Both the position numbers and the translations under genes were made by a program. Shown here one piece after another: positions 138 to 9,288 of a stretch of 32,000 bases of DNA; the stretch's first letter is position 1, and every line of letters starts with the position of its first letter. The DNA lies in contig CAUQSD010000019.1 in NCBI GenBank assembly GCA_963520685.1, forward strand, positions 1 to 32,000, written 5' to 3'. This DNA comes from an uncultured Kingella sp. (GTDB lineage Bacteria > Pseudomonadota > Gammaproteobacteria > Burkholderiales > Neisseriaceae). The notes beneath the pieces were generated by a model. It saw only the letters and a list, made by a program, of their open reading frames with translations. It did not search any database and was not told the DNA's origin.

Positions 138-175
138 AGGCAGCCTGAAAACGGATTGGGGTTTTCAGGCTGCCT
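138..175. terminator. Inverted DUS pair hairpin (AGGCAGCCTGAA ... TTCAGGCTGCCT), likely the original grxB-side terminator
   Basis: A perfect 12-mer at 138-149 and its reverse complement at 164-175 are separated by 14 nt. A GCCCCGATGGGGC hairpin follows at 186-198. Confidence 0.6.
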
Positions 176-322
176 TATATATTCGCCCCGATGGGGCAAA
201 ATCCTGACAAGTATCTTTGAGATAAACTCATGATCTGTTTGTAAGGCTGGTTTAGCCCCAAAAATCAAGGGGCATTAAAGTATATCTGAACAAGCCCCTT
301 GTGTAACCAAGGGGCTTTAATT

Positions 323-535
323 ATGTCTAAAAGTATCAATCAGGCACAAGAGAGTGGTTTACATATTGATTTTTCAGCAGACAAAGTTACTTTTTACAGA
401 TTCGGAAAAGAAGTAGTAACTGTAAAACTGCAAAAAACATTAAATGATTTATCAGATGACGAAGAATTAAGTAAATCAGTAGATTATTTTTTAAAAACAG
501 GCATTTTTGATTATAAAGGCATAACAATCTTATGA
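323..535 (+). CDS. Hypothetical small phage protein (70 aa)
   Basis: ATG at 323 is preceded by AAGGGG. The ORF is AT-rich and is the first ORF inside the prophage. No recognisable motif. The TTG start at 299 in the ORF track is less likely. Confidence 0.45.
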   Translation: MSKSINQAQESGLHIDFSADKVTFYRFGKEVVTVKLQKTLNDLSDDEELSKSVDYFLKTGIFDYKGITIL

Positions 536-573
536 ATCAAGGTCATAAAAGACAGAGCCAAACAAGGGCGCAA

Positions 574-653
574 GCCGACGGCGCAGGCAGACAGCGCGCC
601 AGCGCGGCTGCCTGCGGCGGTGGCGAAAGCCCCCCCTAGGCTAAAAGGGGGGG
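574..653. promoter_or_regulatory. GC-rich hairpin cluster upstream of rep; candidate phage origin or packaging signal
   Basis: An imperfect 17-bp inverted repeat lies at 574-590/608-624 (14/17 by hand). A C7/G7 hairpin lies at 630-636/647-653 with a 10-nt loop. Both sit in a GC island within otherwise AT-rich phage DNA. Confidence 0.35.
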
Positions 654-736
654 AGCGGATAAAACCCCAAGTAAACTAAACGGGGGAGCAGAAAACAGTA
701 GGGATTATTTTAAAGAAGGTCAAATTCAGTAGCATC

Positions 737-2065
737 ATGGAATTAAATTTTCAGAATTACAATTATTTCAATCATGCTGTAACTGTTGGCGGTAAGGTTA
801 TTGAAATCCCTTTGCGTAAAGGCATTAAGGATTCGGCTTTTATTGATGCGCTTACGTTTACGATTAAGAAGGAAACTATAGATATCGTAAAAGGTATCTG
901 TTTGGACGATAGTCAATATATCGCGGCATATAGCGAAATCCTTATAGATATTTTCGGGTTCGGGGTAACGGAACATTTAGGCAAGGGGCGTTATTTTTAT
1001 AAGGCGTTTTATCGTTTGGGAGACGAAAAAGCAGAATACGGCACGCTGCATATAGGCGGGCAGCGTGAAACCGTTTTAGTGGAATTGACGGGTACGGGCT
1101 GTCAAGCGGCAAAAGCAGGGTGGGAACAGCGGCTTTATGATTTCTTAAGTCAGGCGGTTCGTCCACAAATCACACGGATAGACTGCGCACATGATTTTTT
1201 TAACGGGGAGTACACGCCCGAACAGGCACTTATCGATCATAACAACGGCTTATTCAACCGATCCAACTGTAAACCTAAGTCCGAGTTACGGGGTACGGCA
1301 TGGCGCGAAGAAGACTATTCGGGCAAAACTTTTTATGTCGGACGGCGCGGTAGTTCCAAGTTGACACGTGTTTACGAGAAAGGCAGGCAGTTAGGCGATA
1401 AAGACAGCCCTTGGGTAAGGTTTGAGGTTGAGTTTAGAAACAAGGATTGCGTTATCCCATTAGAGATACTGACTGCACCGGGCGAGTATCTTACTGGTGC
1501 TTATCCAGTCGGTGAGAAGCTGTTTGGCAGTCCTGCTATATCTATACGTGCCTCAGAAGAAAAGGTAAACATCCATTTTGACAGCAAGCTTGGCCATGCT
1601 AAAAACCAAGTCGGGCGGATGGTACGTTTACTGAAAGATGCAGGCTGGAGCAGTGATGAAATTGTAGAAGCCTTAATTGCCGATGAAGGCAAGTATCCTA
1701 AGGGTTTGAATCCTGAAGAATATGACTGCACCAAATCTCAAGCCGTTTATATAACGCAAGGTGATGAAATACCTGAAGATTTACAACCTGACGAACTGGA
1801 TGAAGCAGTTGGTATCAGTGAAGCAGTTAGGATTTTTAATGAAACCGTGCCTGATGAAGAGAAAACAGAGCATCAAAAGCAATTGGTTTTTGAAGTTTCG
1901 GACGATATTAAACGTTATCTTGAAGTGTGGAAGCAGCAGGAATATTTCGTTTCGGTGGGCAAACTAACTATGGCGGAGCGAATTAAACAGGAGCAAGACC
2001 AGTATCTTGATTACCTCTATATGAAGTACGGTACACTTTTCCCAACCAACCGACATAAACGATAA
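737..2065 (+). CDS. Rolling-circle replication initiation protein (Rep_trans / RstA / Nf ORF1-like)
   Basis: 442 aa with motifs RIDCAHDFF and YVGRRGSSKLTRVYEKG...VRFEVEFRNKD, typical of the PF02486 replication initiation factor. It is the first large gene of the inovirus module. Confidence 0.85.
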   Translation: MELNFQNYNYFNHAVTVGGKVIEIPLRKGIKDSAFIDALTFTIKKETIDIVKGICLDDSQYIAAYSEILIDIFGFGVTEHLGKGRYFYKAFYRLGDEKAEYGTLHIGGQRETVLVELTGTGCQAAKAGWEQRLYDFLSQAVRPQITRIDCAHDFFNGEYTPEQALIDHNNGLFNRSNCKPKSELRGTAWREEDYSGKTFYVGRRGSSKLTRVYEKGRQLGDKDSPWVRFEVEFRNKDCVIPLEILTAPGEYLTGAYPVGEKLFGSPAISIRASEEKVNIHFDSKLGHAKNQVGRMVRLLKDAGWSSDEIVEALIADEGKYPKGLNPEEYDCTKSQAVYITQGDEIPEDLQPDELDEAVGISEAVRIFNETVPDEEKTEHQKQLVFEVSDDIKRYLEVWKQQEYFVSVGKLTMAERIKQEQDQYLDYLYMKYGTLFPTNRHKR

Positions 2066-2075
2066 AGGATTTATT

Positions 2076-2402
2076 ATGTCATTGAATTTTAATGCTCAGG
2101 TAGAGCTTACTTATCAACGTAAAATTGTAATGGGCGTCACCAAGTTTAAGGGTGAAATCGAAGGTAATGTAATTGATAGCTGTTCTGTCTTGATTGCCGC
2201 GCCTTTAAGTGATACTTCCGGCAATGCCAAAGGTTTCGGGGTGGCAAAAGTTCCTTTCGGGCAATCTGACAACTTTAACCGTTTTGCAGGCGCGCAGTTC
2301 CCCTGTGAAATGGATTTGGCGTTTCAAACGGAGACCAACGCATCGGGGCGGCAGCGTGAAGTATTGAAGGATATAAAACTTGTTTCCGGAGCGAAAGGGT
2401 AA
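2076..2402 (+). CDS. Putative ssDNA-binding protein (gV-like, by size and position)
   Basis: 108 aa, immediately after rep, with RBS AAAGGA. The assignment is positional only. Confidence 0.45.
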   Translation: MSLNFNAQVELTYQRKIVMGVTKFKGEIEGNVIDSCSVLIAAPLSDTSGNAKGFGVAKVPFGQSDNFNRFAGAQFPCEMDLAFQTETNASGRQREVLKDIKLVSGAKG

Positions 2403-2406
2403 ATTG

Positions 2407-2610
2407 ATGCAGGCTTTCTACATCGTTCAGGATTTAGAAACATTTGAGTTTCTTTTTCCGTCTTCTGACGGCGGTGTAGGACAAACGTCCTACATCAAAA
2501 AGGCAGGACATTTTGAAGAGTTTGAGGACGCATTGTCGGCGGGTGAGGATTTAGGTGTGCCGTTTGCAGTCTTCCGTTTCTACCTGTCCGAATCAATTAA
2601 GGCAGCCTGA
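2407..2610 (+). CDS. Hypothetical phage protein (67 aa)
   Basis: ATG at 2407, tightly packed after the previous ORF. The last codons GCA GCC TGA are supplied by a perfect DUS 12-mer at 2600-2611. Confidence 0.4.
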   Translation: MQAFYIVQDLETFEFLFPSSDGGVGQTSYIKKAGHFEEFEDALSAGEDLGVPFAVFRFYLSESIKAA

Positions 2611-2620
2611 AGATTAAATT

Positions 2621-2902
2621 ATGACACGGGATGAAATAGATGCTGAAATTCAGCGATATGCAGATGCTATAAATGAAGCATGGGTCGTCATTAATAATGA
2701 AGATTTATATCATAATCATCTTGTAGAGTCAGCAAGAAATGTCGTTAATTATGCTTCAAGAAGGATTTCAGAGTTATCAGAAATGCTTGGTGACGATGAA
2801 ATTGAAGAATATGAGCGGGATGCTTTTATTGTTGATGCTTTTGAAGAGGAACAAGATGAGCTGGATTATGCAGCAGATTTAGAAGATTATGATTTGTATT
2901 GA
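2621..2902 (+). CDS. Hypothetical acidic phage protein (93 aa)
   Basis: Uninterrupted ORF in the phage operon with a D/E-rich C-terminus. No recognised domain. Confidence 0.4.
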   Translation: MTRDEIDAEIQRYADAINEAWVVINNEDLYHNHLVESARNVVNYASRRISELSEMLGDDEIEEYERDAFIVDAFEEEQDELDYAADLEDYDLY

Positions 2903-3029
2903 TTTTATAAATCAGATTCTTAAATCAATAGCAATATGGATTATTAGTATTTTAGTGCGTTCGGGCGGCGCGCGCTAATTTTGCCCTATCAGCCGCCCAT
3001 TTTTATCAATTTTTTATAGGAAGTTCATC

Positions 3030-3239
3030 ATGAACAAATTATCCAAAAAAACCGCACTCGTTCTTGCGTCTGCAGGTTTACTCTCATCCAATGCCTTTGC
3101 AGGCGAGTTGCTTCAAGCCGCACAGACTGCAACTACAGATTTCAAAGCCGATTTGACAGCCGCAGGAGGCTTGGTTATCGGTATCGCACTGATTTCTGTG
3201 GGTGTGGGTTTGATGATCCGCATGTTCCGTAAGGCGTAA
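3030..3239 (+). CDS. Major coat protein (gVIII-like)
   Basis: 69 aa with signal peptide MNKLSKKTALVLASAGLLSSNAFA, an amphipathic mature N-terminus, TM segment GGLVIGIALISVGVGLMI and basic tail RMFRKA. RBS is TAGGAAG. Confidence 0.8.
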   Translation: MNKLSKKTALVLASAGLLSSNAFAGELLQAAQTATTDFKADLTAAGGLVIGIALISVGVGLMIRMFRKA

Positions 3240-3262
3240 AGTGTAAAAGCAAAGGAGTAACC

Positions 3263-3562
3263 ATGGGATACCGCGTAGGAGGTCAATGCTTCGCAAATTT
3301 TGAGGAAGCGTCCGATTATCGGATGAGCATGGTTACTCCCACTATTATTAATGACGGCAGTCTAAAAATGCCGGTACGAAAATCAGACGGCTGGTATTAC
3401 GAAAACATTAAAGTACAACTAACCTATCCAACTTGTGATCCAGTATCACCTTTTGAAGATGGCGTTAAATTAGGACTATTAATAATGACTATGTTTGTTT
3501 TAGTTTTTGGTGTAAAAACAATGATTAAGATGTTTGAAATGGCAGGCGCGTCAAAGGATTAA
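3263..3562 (+). CDS. Hypothetical membrane / minor coat protein (99 aa)
   Basis: RBS AAAGGAG, C-terminal TM LGLLIMTMFVLVFGV, located in the structural module. Confidence 0.5.
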   Translation: MGYRVGGQCFANFEEASDYRMSMVTPTIINDGSLKMPVRKSDGWYYENIKVQLTYPTCDPVSPFEDGVKLGLLIMTMFVLVFGVKTMIKMFEMAGASKD

Positions 3563-3564
3563 GA

Positions 3565-4047
3565 ATGGAAACAAACAAACCCAAAGGCGGTAATGGTCTG
3601 TCCGCAGTAGTCAAAACCGAAATTTCAGAGATGAAGAAGGATTTAAACCTATCAGGCGAATTAGTTTTAGGAATTACCCTTATTATAATATTTGTATATT
3701 TAATAATTAATATTTTTAAGAATTTAAATGATAAAGATAAAGTTGAAAAAGAATATGAAGAAGAAAATTTAGAAGAAGACACATTAGAAATAGAAAAAAA
3801 TCTACCTAATCAGGAATTAGAAGAATTTAAAAAACCATTAGAAGAAGTACAGGCAGAAGTAGATGAAATACTTTCACGAATGGTAGAGATTACTTCAAAA
3901 TTGGAAGCGACAGAAAATGAACAGGAAAAAGAGAAGCTAAATAAAGAGTTTCAGGAGTTAATGGAAAAATTATCAGAGATAGAAGCACAAAATCCTGAAT
4001 GGGTGGCAGCCGATCAACGCAGGCGCATGGAAGAAGAAAATGTATAA
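3565..4047 (+). CDS. Single-pass membrane protein with E/K-rich coiled-coil tail (160 aa)
   Basis: Start overlaps the previous stop region. TM is LVLGITLIIIFVYLIINIF, followed by a long acidic heptad-like region. Very AT-rich. Confidence 0.5.
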   Translation: METNKPKGGNGLSAVVKTEISEMKKDLNLSGELVLGITLIIIFVYLIINIFKNLNDKDKVEKEYEEENLEEDTLEIEKNLPNQELEEFKKPLEEVQAEVDEILSRMVEITSKLEATENEQEKEKLNKEFQELMEKLSEIEAQNPEWVAADQRRRMEEENV

Positions 4048-4131
4048 CTACGATGTGTTAATTTTCATACTAGGGATAGTATTTACGATACCTTTTTGGA
4101 TATTATTTATAAAATAAACAAGGATTAAGAA

Positions 4132-5550
4132 ATGAAGAAAATATTTTTATTCGTGATGATTTTAATGTCTCTTTATGCTAATGCAGGAGAAAATAATAGT
4201 GGTAATAATGATGTTTTAGATCAGGATTTGAATGATGTTAGTGTTACTCCATGTACTAAAGAACCTGATGGTTTGAAAAAAAATTTTAAAGGTAGAAAGT
4301 ATTATTGTTATAAGGGCAATATGATTGAAGAGGGAGCTGATTTAAGTAAGTTGAAAGAGTGTGGTCCTAATGATAAATATTGCGGAAGTGTAGTTTTAAA
4401 AAAAGAGAAAACACAGGAAGATTATGAAAAAGAAGGTTATGTTTTTTATGATTTAGGAAAGCCGAAAGATATTGGTAGGAAAGAAGAACCTAAAAGTTCA
4501 AATGGCAATAATAATTCTCAAGGAAATTCTAATTCGTCAAATAATGGTACGCAAGCCTCCAATAAACCCGCCGAACCTAACAAGCCACAGCAACCTACTC
4601 CACAACCTACCCCGCAACCCACCCCACAACCTACCCCCAATCCCCAGCCCGCTCCAGTCCCAACACCTAAAATTCCCAATGTGCCTAAAATCCCATCTGA
4701 GGAGTGGATAAACAAATGGCGGGATCATTGGATTGAGGTTTTTGACAGTTTTTCTAAAAAAATTGAAAACGAAAGAAAAATTCTGGCTATAAAGATACAA
4801 GACTGTAGGTCTATTTATACTGCCGGAACGAAGCAATCATCTGATTGCGTTGATAGGATGTTACAATCTTATAAAAAAACCATAGAAGAGATTAAAGAGA
4901 AAATTGAGCGGGCAAGATCCGATATGCAGAAAGAAGCCGCCGAATTATCAAAATCTGTTAAGAACGTTAATAAAAATGTCCCATATCCAAATACCGGGGG
5001 AGATAATACAAATAGTGAAACAAGTCAAAATGGAAATGGGAATAATAATGTAAACCTAAACGGAGACAATAATTCAGGCTCTGGAGACACTACTAATAAT
5101 TTTGGTGGTGATACCAATGTTACGAATAATAATGTTACCGTTAATAATAATACCTCAAAAACTGTGGTTAATAAGGGTGATGGTGGCGGCGGTAATCAAG
5201 TAGGTATTGATAAAGGAAATGGTGATGGTAACGGCAAAAAGGGGAACTGTGAAGGTGATAAAGGTACGGTTGGATGTGCCCAGTTAGGCAGCGAAAAGGA
5301 CTATCCCAAAGACGGATCAATCAGCATAGGTAAAAGCGATTTTGGATTACCATCTTTTTCTCGCTCGAATAACTTTGTTGAACAGGGCTCTTGCCCAGCA
5401 CCGAAATCAATTACTTTAATGGGTACGGTTCAAGTGGTTGATTATTCCCAGTTATGTAGTGGGGCTTTAAAATTAAGACCTATTATTATCGCATGTGCAA
5501 TATTTATAGCATTTGGAATCGTACGTTCAGCGATTATTTCTAAAACCTAA
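4132..5550 (+). CDS. Adsorption / minor coat protein (gIII-like)
   Basis: 472 aa with a signal peptide and a Cys-containing N-domain. It has a (PQPT)n proline linker, N/G-rich low-complexity linkers and a C-terminal TM anchor PIIIACAIFIAFGIV. It occupies the position before g6p-like and Zot. Confidence 0.65.
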   Translation: MKKIFLFVMILMSLYANAGENNSGNNDVLDQDLNDVSVTPCTKEPDGLKKNFKGRKYYCYKGNMIEEGADLSKLKECGPNDKYCGSVVLKKEKTQEDYEKEGYVFYDLGKPKDIGRKEEPKSSNGNNNSQGNSNSSNNGTQASNKPAEPNKPQQPTPQPTPQPTPQPTPNPQPAPVPTPKIPNVPKIPSEEWINKWRDHWIEVFDSFSKKIENERKILAIKIQDCRSIYTAGTKQSSDCVDRMLQSYKKTIEEIKEKIERARSDMQKEAAELSKSVKNVNKNVPYPNTGGDNTNSETSQNGNGNNNVNLNGDNNSGSGDTTNNFGGDTNVTNNNVTVNNNTSKTVVNKGDGGGGNQVGIDKGNGDGNGKKGNCEGDKGTVGCAQLGSEKDYPKDGSISIGKSDFGLPSFSRSNNFVEQGSCPAPKSITLMGTVQVVDYSQLCSGALKLRPIIIACAIFIAFGIVRSAIISKT

Positions 5551-5561
5551 GGGATTTTAAA

Positions 5562-5846
5562 ATGCCGGTATTTATCAGACTATTAGGCGGATTGCTCACG
5601 ACGTTTGTCGGGCAGATATTCGCCGCGCTCGGTTTATCGGTAGTGAGTTACGGTGGTGCGAAGCTGTTGCAAAATCAGTTTGTAAACTATATTTCGGGCA
5701 GCCTGAACAGTATTCCTCCAGAAATCTTACAGATTTTTTATCTGGCAGGCGGTGGCGTAGCTTTGAACTGGATATTCGGTGCAACCTCTTTTGCGTTAAG
5801 TCTTTCAGCAGTCTCAAAGCTTGGCAGTATCTTTAAAGCCAAGTAA
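5562..5846 (+). CDS. gVI-like small membrane protein (94 aa)
   Basis: Three hydrophobic segments, located between the adsorption protein and Zot as in other inoviruses. Confidence 0.5.
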   Translation: MPVFIRLLGGLLTTFVGQIFAALGLSVVSYGGAKLLQNQFVNYISGSLNSIPPEILQIFYLAGGGVALNWIFGATSFALSLSAVSKLGSIFKAK

Positions 5847-5858
5847 GGAAACTTAAAA

Positions 5859-6929
5859 GTGATAAGCTTGATTACAGGTCTTCCAGGTTCAGGTAAAACA
5901 AGCCTGATGGTGCATATGTTGATGACCCGTCCAGATTTACAGAATCGTCCTTTATATGTAGATGGGATACCTGAATTAAAAATACCGCATATGCCTATAC
6001 CCGACGGCGAAGATATGACCACATGGCATAACTGGGCTCCCACAGGAGCGGTATTGGTTATAGACGAGGCACAGCGGATATTCCGTCCCCGCCCTGCCGG
6101 AGCGAAAGTACCCGATTTTGTGCAGGAGTTGGAAACTCACCGTCATAAAGGCATAGATATTTTTATCCTGACCCAATCTCCGCGCTTGATTGATGTCAAT
6201 GTCCGTGCATTGGTTGGAGAACATAGAAATATCAGTAGAACCATGCTCGGTTTGAAACGTGTCAGTTATTGGCAGAAATGTGCTAATCCTGAAAGCAGGA
6301 ACGACGTTGCAGAAGCTAAGAACAGCATTTTTACCATGAAAAAAGATGCATTCGGCATGTATAAAAGTGCCGAAGAGCATACCAAACTTAAAGGCGCGTT
6401 ATCATCTTGGGTGTGGTTTATGCCGGTGCTTCTATTTGCTTTGGTTTACGTTGGAATGGGTCTTAAACAGAGTTATGAAGCGAAAATACAGCCTGAAAGC
6501 GCACAGCAGCAAACGGCAAAGACACCGCAAAGCGTGGATGAGCCGCAAGGCACGGTAGGGGGGAGCTCAAAGCATGAGAGCAACAGAGATATAGGGATGG
6601 GAGAGGCATCCGAACAGATAAAACCCTTGGCCGCATCGGACTTTGAGCCTTCCATAGAGGGCCAACCTTGGACGGCCGCTATTTATAACGGACTCAATCG
6701 CAACGTACAAACCATGCCCTATCCTGCCGGATGTGTTAAATCTGCGGATAAATGTACGTGCTATACAGACCAGGCAACCCCGATAAGAGAGATCAAAAAA
6801 GACGTATGTATAGACTACGCCGAAAACGGAATCTATAACCCTTATATCAATTCGGAGTACGCGCAAAATACAGTTATGCCTAGAGAGGTTGAGCAGCCTC
6901 AAACTAAGGTTTTACAACTTGGGCAATAG
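5859..6929 (+). CDS. Zot / pI-like phage assembly ATPase
   Basis: GTG start after TAAGGAA. Walker A is GLPGSGKT, Walker B is VLVIDEAQ, and there is a central TM WVWFMPVLLFALVYVGMGL. This is the typical Zot N-domain architecture. Confidence 0.9.
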   Translation: MISLITGLPGSGKTSLMVHMLMTRPDLQNRPLYVDGIPELKIPHMPIPDGEDMTTWHNWAPTGAVLVIDEAQRIFRPRPAGAKVPDFVQELETHRHKGIDIFILTQSPRLIDVNVRALVGEHRNISRTMLGLKRVSYWQKCANPESRNDVAEAKNSIFTMKKDAFGMYKSAEEHTKLKGALSSWVWFMPVLLFALVYVGMGLKQSYEAKIQPESAQQQTAKTPQSVDEPQGTVGGSSKHESNRDIGMGEASEQIKPLAASDFEPSIEGQPWTAAIYNGLNRNVQTMPYPAGCVKSADKCTCYTDQATPIREIKKDVCIDYAENGIYNPYINSEYAQNTVMPREVEQPQTKVLQLGQ

Positions 6930-6944
6930 ATAGGCAAGTAGATT

Positions 6945-7355
6945 TTATTCCAGCTTAAATGTAAAAGATGTTGTAAATCGCGTTGTTGCAGGTTTACCGT
7001 TTATTTCTTTGGGTGCATATAAAGCATTTTTTGCTGCATTTATTGCTGCTTTATCCAAAATTTCCGAACCGCTGGATTGGATAATGATAACGTCTTTAAC
7101 TACCGCGTCAGCATCAACAATAACGGCAAGCTTTACAGTTCCTTCCTCTTCATTTTGTAGCGATTCGGGTGGATATTTAGGATTGGGTATTGTTATATAG
7201 CCACCTTCTTTTATTTCAGGTTCTTTTTGCGTTTCGGTTTTTTCTTTGAATACTACGTATTCTTTATTTACATCTTTTTTATTAACATTATGAGCTATAT
7301 ATGCCAATAATCCGCAGATTATGGATAGCAAAAAGATGATGATATTTTGTTTCAT
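6945..7355 (-). CDS. TonB C-terminal-domain protein (136 aa), antisense cargo gene in the prophage
   Basis: N-terminal TM, then YPPESLQNEEEGTVKLAVIVDADAVVKDVIIIQSSGSEILDKAAINAAKNALYAP, matching the TonB_C consensus (YP...G.V.v.f.v...G.v..v.v..SSG...LD.aA). Convergent with zot across a 15-bp gap. Confidence 0.7.
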   Translation of the reverse strand: MKQNIIIFLLSIICGLLAYIAHNVNKKDVNKEYVVFKEKTETQKEPEIKEGGYITIPNPKYPPESLQNEEEGTVKLAVIVDADAVVKDVIIIQSSGSEILDKAAINAAKNALYAPKEINGKPATTRFTTSFTFKLE

Positions 7356-7384
7356 AGGTTTTCTTTCAGATAGGAGTTATAGAA

Positions 7385-7610
7385 TAGAAGATATACAATT
7401 AACGGTACATGAAATGTGCCGTTAATTGTATATCCGCCAACCGCAGGGCGGCAGTGAAACTATAACGGTAAGGTAATTAATGTTACAATTAAGAGCCGTA
7501 TAACGCCCGCGAATCGCTGCCTTGGCAACAAGCCATCGCAAAAGATTGGTGCATACGGCTTTTTTATTTTTGTTGAAACATAACAGTATCATGGGCAATC
7601 AGCCCTTATC
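7385..7610 (+). ncRNA. Candidate structured non-coding RNA (possible IS110-type bridge RNA); extent and strand unverified
   Basis: No ORF in the 270 nt. An 18-bp stem lies at 7391-7408/7416-7433 (one G.U pair) and a GC hairpin at 7434-7438/7447-7451. An 8-bp stem at 7494-7501/7553-7560 is followed by a T-run. ACAGTATC at 7583-7590 equals the right-end sequence 8619-8626. Confidence 0.3.
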
Positions 7611-7626
7611 GTAAGGTTTGTACATA

Positions 7627-8592
7627 ATGACGACAATTTACTTGGGCTTAGATATCGGTAAAGACAATATTGATGCTGTAACTGCTCAAACACCGCACAT
7701 TACCGTCTCCAATGACGAAGCTGGCTATCGGAAACTGTTGGATTATCTGCAAATTCACCAATTGGATTTAACCCGTATCCATGCCTGCTGCGAATCCACC
7801 AATATCTATTATCTCGGCATTGCCGCCTATCTTTACCGGCACAATATTAAAATCAGCGTCATAAACCCTACCGCCATTAAAGCCTATGCCAAGATGCAGC
7901 TTAGGCGGGTTAAAACGGATAAGCAGGATGCCAAGATGATAGCCGATTATTGTCGTAAAGAGCAGCCCGCAGCATGGCAGCCTGAAAGCGATATTAAAAG
8001 GCAGCTTAAAAACCTGCACCGCCGCATAGAGCAACTTAATGAAATCCATATCCAAGAGCAAAACCGCTTACAGGTTGCCGACGACTGTACCAAAGAATCC
8101 ATAGAGTACCTGATAGCAACCCTGCAAACGCAAATCGCCGGCTGCCGTAAACAGATGCAGGACATTATAGACAAATCGGCGGATTTAAAGCGCAAGCAGA
8201 AAAACCTTGAAACCATACCCGGTATCGGCCGAACTACCGCTCAAATACTGTTGTCGGTCTTAATCGATTTGGAGCGGTTTGAAACCTCCAAGCACCTTAT
8301 CAGCTATTTGGGCTTAAGCCCTATTATCCGTGATAGCGGCAAGTACAAGGGCTTGCAGCGTGTATCCAAAATGGGTAGCCGTTCGGTACGCAAAAGTCTG
8401 TATATGCCCGCAAGGACAGCCTGCACCCGCTCCAAGCTTTGGCGTGCGTGGTTTGACTACCAAATCGGACGTGGCAAACACCCTAAGCAGGTTTACGTTA
8501 TGATGATGTGCAAAATCCTACGCTATGCCTATGCCTGTCTGAAAACGGACAAGCCTTTTGATGCTTCGCTTCATAAGAAACCAAATAGTTAA
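7627..8592 (+). CDS. IS110 / Piv-family DEDD transposase (recombinase)
   Basis: 321 aa with LGLDIGKD, CCESTNIYY and RVKTDKQDAKMIA (DEDD_Tnp_IS110), and C-terminal IPGIGRTTAQ...GLSPIIRDSGKYKG...SKMGSRSVRKSLYM (Transposase_20). ATG at 7627 after GTAAGG is preferred over TTG at 7618. Confidence 0.92.
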   Translation: MTTIYLGLDIGKDNIDAVTAQTPHITVSNDEAGYRKLLDYLQIHQLDLTRIHACCESTNIYYLGIAAYLYRHNIKISVINPTAIKAYAKMQLRRVKTDKQDAKMIADYCRKEQPAAWQPESDIKRQLKNLHRRIEQLNEIHIQEQNRLQVADDCTKESIEYLIATLQTQIAGCRKQMQDIIDKSADLKRKQKNLETIPGIGRTTAQILLSVLIDLERFETSKHLISYLGLSPIIRDSGKYKGLQRVSKMGSRSVRKSLYMPARTACTRSKLWRAWFDYQIGRGKHPKQVYVMMMCKILRYAYACLKTDKPFDASLHKKPNS

Positions 8593-8606
8593 GTTTTGTA
8601 AATTCA

Positions 8607-8612
8607 TTGACA
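8607..8612 (+). promoter_or_regulatory. Outward-facing consensus -35 hexamer TTGACA at the prophage right end
   Basis: Exact TTGACA lies 8 nt before the terminal AGTATCTTT, and no -10 follows in the integrated state. Compatible with a circle-junction promoter half-site. Confidence 0.3.
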
Positions 8613-8634
8613 AAAATTACAGTATCTTTTGGGT

Positions 8635-9288
8635 TTACAGCGCGCGGTCAAAATACAGATTGACGCTGCTTGCCGCTGCCATGTTGCGCAGATAGGTTTC
8701 CACGTTCTGCGGATAGGCGAGGGACTGGACCATACTGAGGTTGCGCAGCAGCGGGAAGACGATGATGTCTTCCATACTCAGGTTTTGGCCGTTGAGACAG
8801 CTGCTGCCTGCCGTCAGGCGGGAGAGTTCCTGCAAATCGGCCTCGGCGCGGGCAAGGTATTCGGGGGTTTCGGCAAGCATTTGGGCAAATGTTTTGCCGC
8901 TGAATGCTTCTTTTTTGGCGGTGAAATAGTCTATTGCGGACTGGGTGGCAAATTCGGGCAGGCCGAGGCGGATGCTGCGGGGATAGAGCAGGTTGGTGAT
9001 GTAGCCGCTGACGCGGTCGTACCATGCTTGGATTTCGGGGCGGATTTGGGGGGCGATGGCTTCGCCGCCGTTGCATTGGGCCAGATAGTGCACGATGTCT
9101 AGGCTCTCGCCCATGAAGCTGCCGTCCGGTTTTTCCAGAATGGGGACTTGTTTTGCACCAATCATACGGATGGGGGTTGCTTCGTCGTCATTGGCAAGGT
9201 AGGCGGTGGCAACGGGCAGCTTGCGCAGGCCGATAACGATGCGGGGGCGTACGCAGAAGGGGCAGTGGTCGTATATATAGAGTTTCAT
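8635..9288 (-). CDS. grxB: Glutaredoxin 2
   Basis: MKLYIYDHCPFCVRPR...GAKQVPILEKPDGSFMGESLDIVHY aligns along its whole length with E. coli GrxB as I recall it (CPYC-type site, about 215 aa). Confidence 0.93.
   Translation of the reverse strand: MKLYIYDHCPFCVRPRIVIGLRKLPVATAYLANDDEATPIRMIGAKQVPILEKPDGSFMGESLDIVHYLAQCNGGEAIAPQIRPEIQAWYDRVSGYITNLLYPRSIRLGLPEFATQSAIDYFTAKKEAFSGKTFAQMLAETPEYLARAEADLQELSRLTAGSSCLNGQNLSMEDIIVFPLLRNLSMVQSLAYPQNVETYLRNMAAASSVNLYFDRAL

Follow-up and report, generated by a model that had tools for sequence, protein, structure and literature searches.

Introduction

The filamentous phages of the Nf/MDA type carry the genes for the replication initiator, the coat protein, the gene III-position protein, the pVI-like protein, and Zot in this order, lack a secretin, encode an IS110-type transposase, and integrate at the dinucleotide CT in the abundant host repeat dRS3 (PMC2212043, PMC7058167). 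In phage MDA, TspB is encoded at the gene III position by ORF6, and ORF9 encodes the transposase, for which IS621 is the best match (PMC2212043). Integration of these phages by their own IS110-type transposase at abundant repeats has been known since 2005, with the choice of the site unexplained. Recombinases of the IS110 family are guided by bridge RNAs (PMC11208160, PMC11208158), and the bridge RNA of IS621 is driven by a promoter at the junction of the joined ends (PMC11208160). Here we describe an inovirus prophage at positions 177-8628 of a 32,000-nt stretch of DNA from an uncultured Kingella sp. (assembly GCA_963520685.1, contig CAUQSD010000019.1, positions 1-32,000), which is called the window and to which every coordinate below refers. 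The prophage lies between the stop codon of the host gene grxB and the terminator of that gene, a hairpin formed by a pair of DNA uptake sequences (DUS). Comparison of its guides, ends, and flanks with those of its relatives makes it very probable that this Nf-like prophage integrates without a scar at the edge of the DUS terminator by means of an IS621-type bridge RNA.

Protein families were assigned by Pfam and PHROGs, and RNA families by Rfam. The relatives were collected by pattern scans of a genome collection, where the carriers were only K. denitrificans and one uncultured Kingella metagenome-assembled genome, and of metagenomes, which gave 80 recombinase loci. The exact look-up of the window recombinase protein returned no record. 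No rRNA or tRNA gene was present in the window, and the Rfam search of the window gave no family match, the bridge RNA region included.

Results

Boundaries of the prophage

The exact look-up of the grxB protein returned 17 contigs. Seven of these (L001, L002, L004, L005, L007, L008, and L010) contained an identical grxB and no prophage, and their empty site read CTGTAAACCCAAAAG directly followed by GCAGCCTGAAAACCCCAATCCGTTTTCAGGCTGCC in the orientation of grxB (the right part also written in shorter form as GCAGCCTGAAAA), or TTCAGGCTGC-CTT-TTGGGTTTACAG in the orientation of the window (also written TTCAGGCTGCCTTTTGGGTTTACAG), with CTT occurring once only. The same prophage was found at the same place in L003 and L006 (= L103), as well as in L102, which was retrieved by the exact look-up of the Rep protein. 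In all, the identical grxB was present in at least four contigs with the prophage. In addition, a contig of the public run X1 joined position 173 to position 8626, skipping 8,452 bp, with three bases that fit either side. The mobile element, an inovirus prophage with IS621-type ends, was accordingly placed at 177-8628 on the plus strand (8,452 bp), which is equally writable as 174-8625. Its GC content was about 0.40, against about 0.60 outside (beyond 8630).

The overlap at the left junction is CTT (174-176, plus strand), of which CT at 174-175 forms the core, and the same CTT is found at 8626-8628. The right end (8593-8628, plus strand) consists of a -35 box TTGACA (8607-8612), the left donor arm ACAGTAT (8619-8625), and the core CT (8626-8627), and is followed at 8629-8637 of the plus strand by TTGGGT, the right half of the target, and the stop codon of grxB (8635-8637, TTA when read on the plus strand). 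The host grxB gene (8635-9288, minus strand; glutaredoxin 2 by Pfam) is located 8.45 kb from its own terminator, the hairpin of an inverted AG-kingDUS pair at 138-175 (AGGCAGCCTGAA at 138-149 on the plus strand and at 164-175 on the minus strand). In the empty site this hairpin begins 9 nt past the stop codon of grxB. The right edge of the hairpin, GCTGC-CT, provides the left half of the target for integration. The target was restored exactly where the element was absent, and the whole 8,452 bp was present or absent as one unit. The empty sites and the contig joint showed that insertion and excision are scarless, with no target duplication beyond the core. The phage open reading frames (ORFs) and the recombinase were all intact, and 177-8628 is a real and intact Nf-like filamentous prophage that is probably mobile.

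The original prediction for this locus had placed the element between the grxB stop codon and the DUS-pair terminator, thereby parting grxB from its hairpin, which the empty sites confirmed. Its left boundary of 219 was off by 44 bp, since the empty sites and the contig joint put the true boundary at 174-177. A mismatch with uninterrupted loci had been named there as one possible refutation, and the real loci differed from the empty site predicted by deletion of 219-8629, which was thereby refuted. The hairpin GCCCCGATGGGGC (185-197), which had been taken as host sequence, was missing from the empty sites and belongs to the phage. The sequence AGTATCTTT, proposed as an attachment repeat at both edges, has its left copy (210-218) 34 bp inside the element, without duplication at the junction. 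The left copy is a predicted donor guide meant to pair with the right end, which explains the apparent repeat.

A simple terminator scan found no terminator-like site in 7300-8700, which makes antisense read-through from grxB into the recombinase gene plausible. In L009 (about 917-1010), a variant of the empty site contained an extra DUS-containing segment after the hairpin, implying that the locus downstream of grxB is polymorphic even without the phage.

Recombinase, predicted bridge RNA, and ends

The gene at the right end (7627-8592, plus strand) encodes an intact IS110-family, IS621-like bridge recombinase of 321 aa with matches to DEDD_Tnp_IS110 and Transposase_20. The protein was 36% identical to the IS621 recombinase over 317 residues, and D9, E56, D98, D101, and S237 aligned with D11, E60, D102, D105, and S241 of IS621, which we take to be the catalytic positions. 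Just upstream of the gene, the region 7493-7620 (plus strand) aligned position by position with the bridge RNA of IS621 and with its counterparts in 19 relatives, and was assigned as a bridge RNA with two loops. The target-binding loop has an outer stem (7495-7501 with 7553-7559) and an inner stem (7523-7526 with 7532-7535). The stems of this loop were recovered by RNAalifold, and 11 of the 14 predicted pairs kept pairing through two-sided changes. The stems of the donor loop, including the inner stem (7593-7596 with 7602-7605), were checked by eye only. The single-sequence fold of the bridge RNA gave two stem-loops with an internal loop in each (z = -2.24).

The guides located by IS621 homology corresponded to both flanks of the target and to both ends of the phage. 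The left target guide GCTGCCT (7516-7522) is identical to the left flank plus the core (GGCTGC-CT), which is the end of the reverse-complement AG-kingDUS, and the right target guide CAAAAG (7539-7544) complements the core plus the right flank (CT-TTTG). The left donor guide ACAGTATC (7583-7590) is identical to the phage right end, and this sequence occurred only twice in the 32-kb window, as the donor guide and at the right end. The right donor guide GTAAGG (7611-7616) is complementary to CTTAT at the left end if a single G-T pair is allowed, which also holds for IS621.

The ends of the element, ACAGTAT-CT-TATATATT, are homologous to those of IS621, ACAGTAT-CT-TGTATTAT. In the E. coli IS621 copy OR844797.1, the right end reads ...TTGCAGGCCATAACAGTAT before CT and the left end reads TGTATTATCCC after CT, and the IS621 counterpart of the window right end is TTGCAG...ACAGTAT followed by CT. 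This comparison indicates that the donor sequence, the CT core, and a promoter split by the junction are common to both. In the predicted circle, TTGACA (8607-8612), a spacer of 17 nt, and TATATT (178-183, plus strand), read from the sequence as the -10 half of the junction promoter, would form a near-consensus promoter. The same split-promoter arrangement was observed in the circular inovirus genomes OR148979.1 and OR148983.1 and in IS621. Comparison with the IS621 left end also revealed a putative fossil internal left end (7426-7451, plus strand), consisting of TTGTATAT and a stem-loop CCGCC..GGCGG, with TT where the CT core would be. The persistence of this remnant upstream of the bridge RNA points to an ordinary IS621-like element as the ancestor, one that came to enclose a phage genome. 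The phage may have been captured by an ordinary insertion sequence (IS) or have grown inside it.

Covariation of the guides with the targets

The right guide, taken as its reverse complement, matched the core and the right flank over 4-10 contiguous bases in 24 integrated copies, and over at least 6 bases in 21 of them; the IS621 control scored 6. At the five variable positions of the right guide, 103 of 120 bases matched, compared with 40% in cross pairs, and none of 100,000 permutations reached the observed match. Single-base differences were compensated, as in CCAAAG/CTTTGG (L023) versus CCGAAG/CTTCGG (L024) and in GGGAAAG/CTTTCCC (L033) versus GGAAAAG/CTTTTCC (L036). In the Neisseria-type loci L070 and L101, the base after the CT core is C and the guide pair is GAG/CTC in place of the usual AAG/CTT, which implies that the conserved CTT is specified by the guide and is not fixed by the enzyme.

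A sibling phage (L104), with a Rep 94% and a recombinase 92% identical to those of the window, has the right guide CGCAAAAG, the same as the window phage. It was inserted between phoH and a PAP2 gene at GCTGC-CT-TTTGCG, with a guide match of 8/8. The called PAP2 gene (minus strand) extends about 12 nt into the right end of the sibling phage (L104 17600-17640), and the insertion probably alters the last codons of this gene.

The left guide followed the DUS of the host. AG-kingDUS (AGGCAGCCTGAA) occurred in 23 copies in the window, whereas 0.01 would be expected, which agrees with the earlier claim that the host DUS is not the meningococcal dialect. The left junction in 15 loci was a complete reverse-complement 12-mer DUS followed by TATATATT (TGTATATT in L028). 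The bases just 5' of the target-loop inner stem were GCTGCCT where the reverse-complement DUS was TTCAGGCTGCCT (AG-kingDUS), TAGCCT where it was TTCAGGTAGCCT (AG-eikDUS), ACGGCC where it was TTCAGACGGCCT (AG-DUS), and ACGACC where it was TTCAGACGACCT (AG-mucDUS), the last two 12-mers being what we take to be the sequences of these dialects. With the four dialects compared, the longest word shared by the left guide belonged to the dialect actually present at the junction in 14 of 14 loci. AA-king3DUS is described in K. denitrificans and AG-eikDUS in E. corrodens, and DUS pairs are associated with terminators (PMC3630211).

Two clades in AA-king3DUS hosts use other target registers. In the K. 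denitrificans clade, the insertion occurred after a forward DUS, between GCAGCCTGCA and CT, in the loop of the hairpin, at five or six different sites. In L086 and L089, the insertion seemed to lie inside the DUS, between CT and GCA, as read from the right flank only. The related prophage of K. denitrificans ATCC 33394, whose recombinase is 67% and whose Zot is 63% identical to those of the window, has the ends host-CTT-ATATATTCGCCCC... on the left and ...TTGACACTGATTACAGTAT-CTT-host on the right, the same as in the window.

Predicted left-end RNA and second donor loop

The left end of the phage (177-322) contains, in order, the -10 box, a 5' stem-loop, a module resembling a donor loop, and two GC-rich hairpins, and is followed by the first ORF. 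The fold of this RNA (184-322) had a z-score of -4.63. The 5' stem-loop GCCCCGATGGGGC (185-197, plus strand), without a counterpart in the empty sites, was conserved in position among the relatives. The putative second donor-binding loop (DBL'; 201-250, plus strand) comprises a left donor guide AGTATCTT (210-217), an inner hairpin TGAG/CTCA (218-230), and a right donor guide GTAAGG (241-246). The left guide repeats the phage right end (8621-8628) base for base and covaries with it: L040 combines the guide GACGGTATCTTT with the right end TTACGGTATCT. Covariation was likewise seen between the right guide and the left end, as L016 and L028 combine the guide GCAAGG with a left end that starts with CTTG. 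The inner hairpin showed compensatory changes in the relatives, with its pairing kept. The minimum-free-energy fold gave the two GC-rich hairpins at 255-273 and at 292-317 (together 255-320, plus strand), the latter with TTTAATT behind it. These hairpins probably mark the end of the left-end RNA; they were not flagged by the simple terminator scan.

Since IS621 recombination in vitro works with separate target and donor loops (PMC11208158), a stand-alone donor-loop RNA is plausible. As DBL' lies behind the junction promoter, the left-end RNA would be expected mainly from the circular form. In the integrated state, a host TTGGGG stands 16 nt before the left-end -10 box TATATT (156-183). From this weak hybrid promoter, the prophage could express the left-end RNA at a low level. 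A cryptic target loop in the left end, GGCTGG..CCCCAAAAA (245-264), with 6-7 flank bases matched, was considered and rejected, as no such match was found in the K. denitrificans clade.

Circular forms

The predicted junction of the window circle is ...ATTACAGTAT-CTT-ATATATTCGCCCCGATGGGGC, with 8628 joined to 177. The saliva inoviruses D_HF3_10 (OR148979.1) and D_HF35_23 (OR148983.1) are deposited in GenBank as circular genomes with the same module order, and in these and other circular saliva genomes the transposase is followed by ...TTGACAC..ACAGTATCTTGTATATTC..., as predicted for the window circle. In the metagenome contig L022 (1-11446, coverage 64), the right end behind the recombinase runs straight into a phage left end. 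The contig as a whole is not closed into a circle and has 6.7 kb of non-inovirus genes (DUF4376, AAA ATPase, and formyl transferase) upstream of the recombinase and bridge RNA, and it may represent a tandem, a larger cargo-carrying phage, or a chimeric assembly.

In several relatives, a conserved GC-rich block of about 170 nt, GTCAAGGGGGAAGCTTTGTAAAGG...CCCCACACTCTGCCG..AGGGCAGG..., was present between the recombinase stop codon and the right end (L017, about 2905-3150; downstream of the recombinase in L028, L029, L037-L039, and L052). The block lies upstream of the bridge RNA in L022 (6436-6600), and the window phage lacks it. A structured RNA and a small mobile insert are both conceivable identities for the block.

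Phage genes

The plus strand of the element carries an inovirus gene set in which Rep, coat, pVI-like protein, and Zot follow one another as expected (Pfam and PHROGs). The first ORF (323-535, plus strand) encodes 70 aa without a family match and precedes the rolling-circle replication initiator Rep_trans (737-2065, plus strand; Pfam E = 7.7e-34), which is 64% identical to the Rep of the saliva inovirus OR148976.1. The ORF of 108 aa at 2076-2402 (plus strand) occupies the position of the single-stranded DNA-binding protein. Its sole match was phrog_4994, of unknown function, and a role as such a protein is unsupported. At the end of a 76-aa ORF lies a perfect AG-kingDUS (2600-2611, plus strand), the only DUS in the AT-rich element of 8.45 kb, and this copy could allow uptake of phage DNA by transformation. 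The major coat protein of 69 aa (3030-3239, plus strand) was recognized by Phage_Coat_B at 24 bits (cutoff 23.5) and by the PHROG for major coat proteins. The gene III-position protein (4132-5550, plus strand; 472 aa), presumed to serve adsorption, had no Pfam match, so that Neisseria_TspB (PF05616) was not among its matches; TspB-type proteins occupy this position in the Neisseria relatives. It is followed by the pVI-like minor virion protein with DUF2523 (5562-5846, plus strand; Pfam and PHROG) and the Zot/pI-like assembly ATPase (5859-6929, plus strand; E = 8.6e-24). No ORF of the element matched a secretin family in Pfam or PHROGs. The family assignments therefore supported what had been predicted from the letters alone: a Nf-like inovirus prophage that ends on the right with an IS110 recombinase, has no secretin, and carries Rep_trans, the 69-aa coat, the gene III position, the pVI-like protein, and Zot in this order.

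The accessory gene downstream of Zot lies on the opposite strand (6945-7355, minus strand) and encodes a TonB C-terminal domain (TonB_C, Pfam) behind a hydrophobic N-terminus that appeared, as judged by eye, to be a membrane anchor. Homologues at the same position, between Zot and the recombinase, were present in OR148983.1, in L104 (63% identity), and in L084 (78%), and the antisense gene was located at L017 1113-1619, L104 15924-16367, and L084 about 721. The gene had been interpreted as a replacement of TspB, taken to be ORF9 of the Nf phages. Since ORF9 of MDA encodes the transposase and the TspB of MDA is the product of ORF6, at the gene III position (PMC2212043), the TonB-like gene is an extra gene between Zot and the transposase and not a substitute for TspB. 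Filamentous phages enter their hosts via TolA, and the C-terminal domain of TolA resembles that of TonB. By this likeness of the domains, a role of the antisense gene in superinfection exclusion is conceivable.

Discussion

We propose that the double-stranded circle of the phage is recombined into the chromosome at GCTGC-CT-TTTG (also written TTCAGGCTGCCTTTTGGG; GCTGCCTTTTG-type sites), which is the 3' edge of the DUS-pair terminator hairpin and its T tract, 9 nt after the grxB stop codon. The reaction would be carried out by a recombinase tetramer guided by the two RNA loops, as shown for IS621. The joined ends would build a promoter for the left-end RNA, whose second, donor-loop-only module would thus be made mainly from the circle, and the full bridge RNA would start at an internal promoter and form the leader of the recombinase mRNA. 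Because DUS are abundant, lineage-specific, and located in terminators, the left guide would open up numerous sites for harmless insertion in a suitable host, and the right guide would narrow the choice. A wider generalization, for which we see slightly less than an even chance, is that a clade of filamentous phages in Kingella-, Eikenella-, and Neisseria-like hosts of the Neisseriaceae integrates by bridge RNA, with the left guide tuned to the DUS dialect as landing pad and determinant of the lysogeny range. The naturally split system of this proposal, with a donor-loop RNA from the circle promoter and a full bridge RNA with the recombinase mRNA, could favour integration as a circle and stability once integrated.

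Several observations weigh against the bridge-RNA mechanism. The right guide pairs only 6 bases at the grxB site (CTTTTG, then GG versus CG), and a simple sigma-70 scan of the plus strand gave no canonical promoter from which the internal bridge RNA could be made; the sequence TGTTACAAT at 7481-7489 may be an extended -10 box. In the K. denitrificans clade, the left guide ACCTGCAT fits the flank GCCTGCACT only with an offset of one base, and the recombinase of K. denitrificans ATCC 33394 (L011 10001-10972, NZ_GL870929.1) is a pseudogene, interrupted by an in-frame stop and frameshifted over about 50 residues. The exact circular junction of the window phage, ACAGTATCTTATATATTCGCCCC, had no match in IMG/VR, and the assembled contigs of run X1 showed the empty site and not the circular junction. 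The role proposed for the second donor loop is drawn from its conservation.

The inactivated recombinase of the K. denitrificans ATCC 33394 prophage and the circular junction missing from IMG/VR and the run X1 contigs would also suit a prophage that is fixed at the grxB locus as a remnant and no longer mobile. We regard this as unlikely, since the phage ORFs and the recombinase are all intact, strains with 100% identical grxB differ only in the presence of the element, and a sibling of 92-94% identity is found at a different site.

It is less probable still that the IS110 gene and its bridge RNA (about 7426-8628) form an independent IS beside a prophage that integrates otherwise, for example by the host XerCD at a dif-like site. 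Many inoviruses do use XerCD, and with the fossil left end (7426-7451) and the complete bridge RNA adjoining the recombinase, the block looks like a whole IS. However, contigs either have or lack all 8,452 bp with its IS621-type ends, the fossil left end has TT and not the CT core, and the circular phage genomes contain the recombinase with its right end joined to the distal left end. Moreover, among the loci with at least 50% recombinase identity, inovirus genes lay upstream in every contig that reached upstream of the recombinase (L024, L027, and L030 are short contigs with the recombinase alone), and the donor loop of the left end itself covaries with the right end.

Hardly more credible than an independent IS, and if anything a shade less so, is direct recognition of the DUS or terminator by the recombinase protein, the older Piv/MooV view of Nf integration, in which the RNA-like region would be only a 5' leader. 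Before 2024, Nf integration at dRS3 was indeed credited to the transposase alone (PMC7058167), but single-base differences in the guides are mirrored by single-base differences in the flanks among closely related recombinases, and the loop architecture is conserved with IS621, where RNA guidance has been shown experimentally. The model of an element at 219-8629 with AGTATCTTT as a duplicated attachment core and the GCCCCATCGGGGC hairpin as host sequence has practically no standing, for although AGTATCTTT is present at 210-218 and 8621-8629, neither the hairpin nor the 44 bp on its right occurs in the seven empty sites, the contig joint skips exactly 174-8625, and the hairpin-plus-repeat block is part of the phage in relatives of other hosts, circular genomes included.

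If integration is guided by the bridge RNA, the choice of the site would be readable directly from the RNA guides of the phage, and the integration sites of such prophages would be predictable from the phage sequence alone. The left guide shifts with the DUS across four dialects and the right guide shifts with the flank, which would represent a natural reprogramming of bridge RNAs in evolution. The mechanism would also link transformation with lysogeny, as the sequence that marks 'self' DNA for uptake would mark the landing sites of the phage. For annotation, the left boundary of Neisseriaceae prophages could be set exactly at reverse-complement DUS, CT, and TATATATT, and the right boundary at ACAGTAT-CT in the closest clades and at ACGGTAT, ACACTAT, ATACTAT, or AGTAGTAT in others. 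The additional donor loop, placed after a promoter that is formed only in the circle, would amount to a natural split-RNA design and raises a new question for bridge recombinases.

Comparison with known systems

Like Nf1/MDA (N. meningitidis Z2491 NMA1792-1800), the window element is about 8 kb in size and carries Rep, small ORFs, coat, gene III-position protein, pVI-like protein, and Zot, with an IS110 transposase at the right end; Nf1/MDA likewise integrates at CT within a host repeat of high abundance, and its excised form is a circle (PMC2212043, PMC7058167). Unlike Nf1/MDA, its target is the edge of a DUS-pair terminator (TTCAGGCTGC-CT-TTTG) and not dRS3 (ATTCCCN8GGGAAT), no dRS3-flanked copy being found among 119 loci. 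It also differs in the gene III-position protein without a TspB domain match, in the extra antisense TonB_C gene, and in the AG-kingDUS host, which is Kingella-like by its DUS dialect and by the carriers of the related prophages. The Neisseria-type relatives were 33-48% identical to the window in Zot and pVI and 33-38% in the recombinase, the MDA sequence itself being outside this comparison, and one of them (L114) has a different Rep family, PF23343. Since neither the dRS3 target nor the TspB domain was found, the element is classed by these sequence features as a Nf-like sister lineage outside Nf1-4.

The saliva inoviruses OR148979.1 and OR148983.1 resemble the window phage in the recombinase (about 60% identity) and in the junction TTGACA..ACAGTATCTTGTATATT, and OR148983.1 has the antisense TonB-like gene as well. 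Their right target guide is GAGAAAG, which differs from that of the window and thus predicts a different integration site. These records are annotated with a 'transposase' only, and no RNA or integration site is described in them. In the literature searched, no bridge RNA was reported in Neisseriaceae filamentous phages, nor DUS as their target, and neither the tracking of DUS dialects by a left guide nor a second donor loop at the left end was found.

As in IS621, the donor is ACAGTAT-CT-T(A/G)TAT, a promoter spans the joined ends, and a two-loop bridge RNA lies directly upstream of the start codon. IS621 targets repetitive extragenic palindromic (REP) sequences and the window element DUS pairs, both being abundant intergenic palindromic repeats. 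The compact architecture of the IS621 type (about 1.3-1.5 kb, with the bridge RNA behind the junction promoter) was not seen here: IS621 measures 1.28 kb and the window element 8.45 kb, the full bridge RNA is 7.3 kb from the left end, and the donor-loop module alone stands behind the junction promoter. The phage genome separates the left end from the bridge RNA, which keeps the junction promoter from driving the full bridge RNA directly. Unlike IS621, the window element has a second, donor-loop-only RNA module at its left end and has kept the internal fossil left end. By the features predicted here, it is an IS621-type bridge system in mechanism and not in its compact architecture.

The cargo-bearing 'expanded' IS110 elements (bioRxiv 10.64898/2026.08.14.744561) likewise use an IS110 recombinase and a bridge RNA to move kilobases of cargo, with guide matches to target flanks in non-coding regions; the main text of that report makes no mention of inoviruses, filamentous phages, or Neisseria. 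The cargo of the 'expanded' elements consists of resistance, metal-detoxification, and plasmid-like content, whereas that of the window element is a complete, autonomously replicating filamentous phage with a DUS target.

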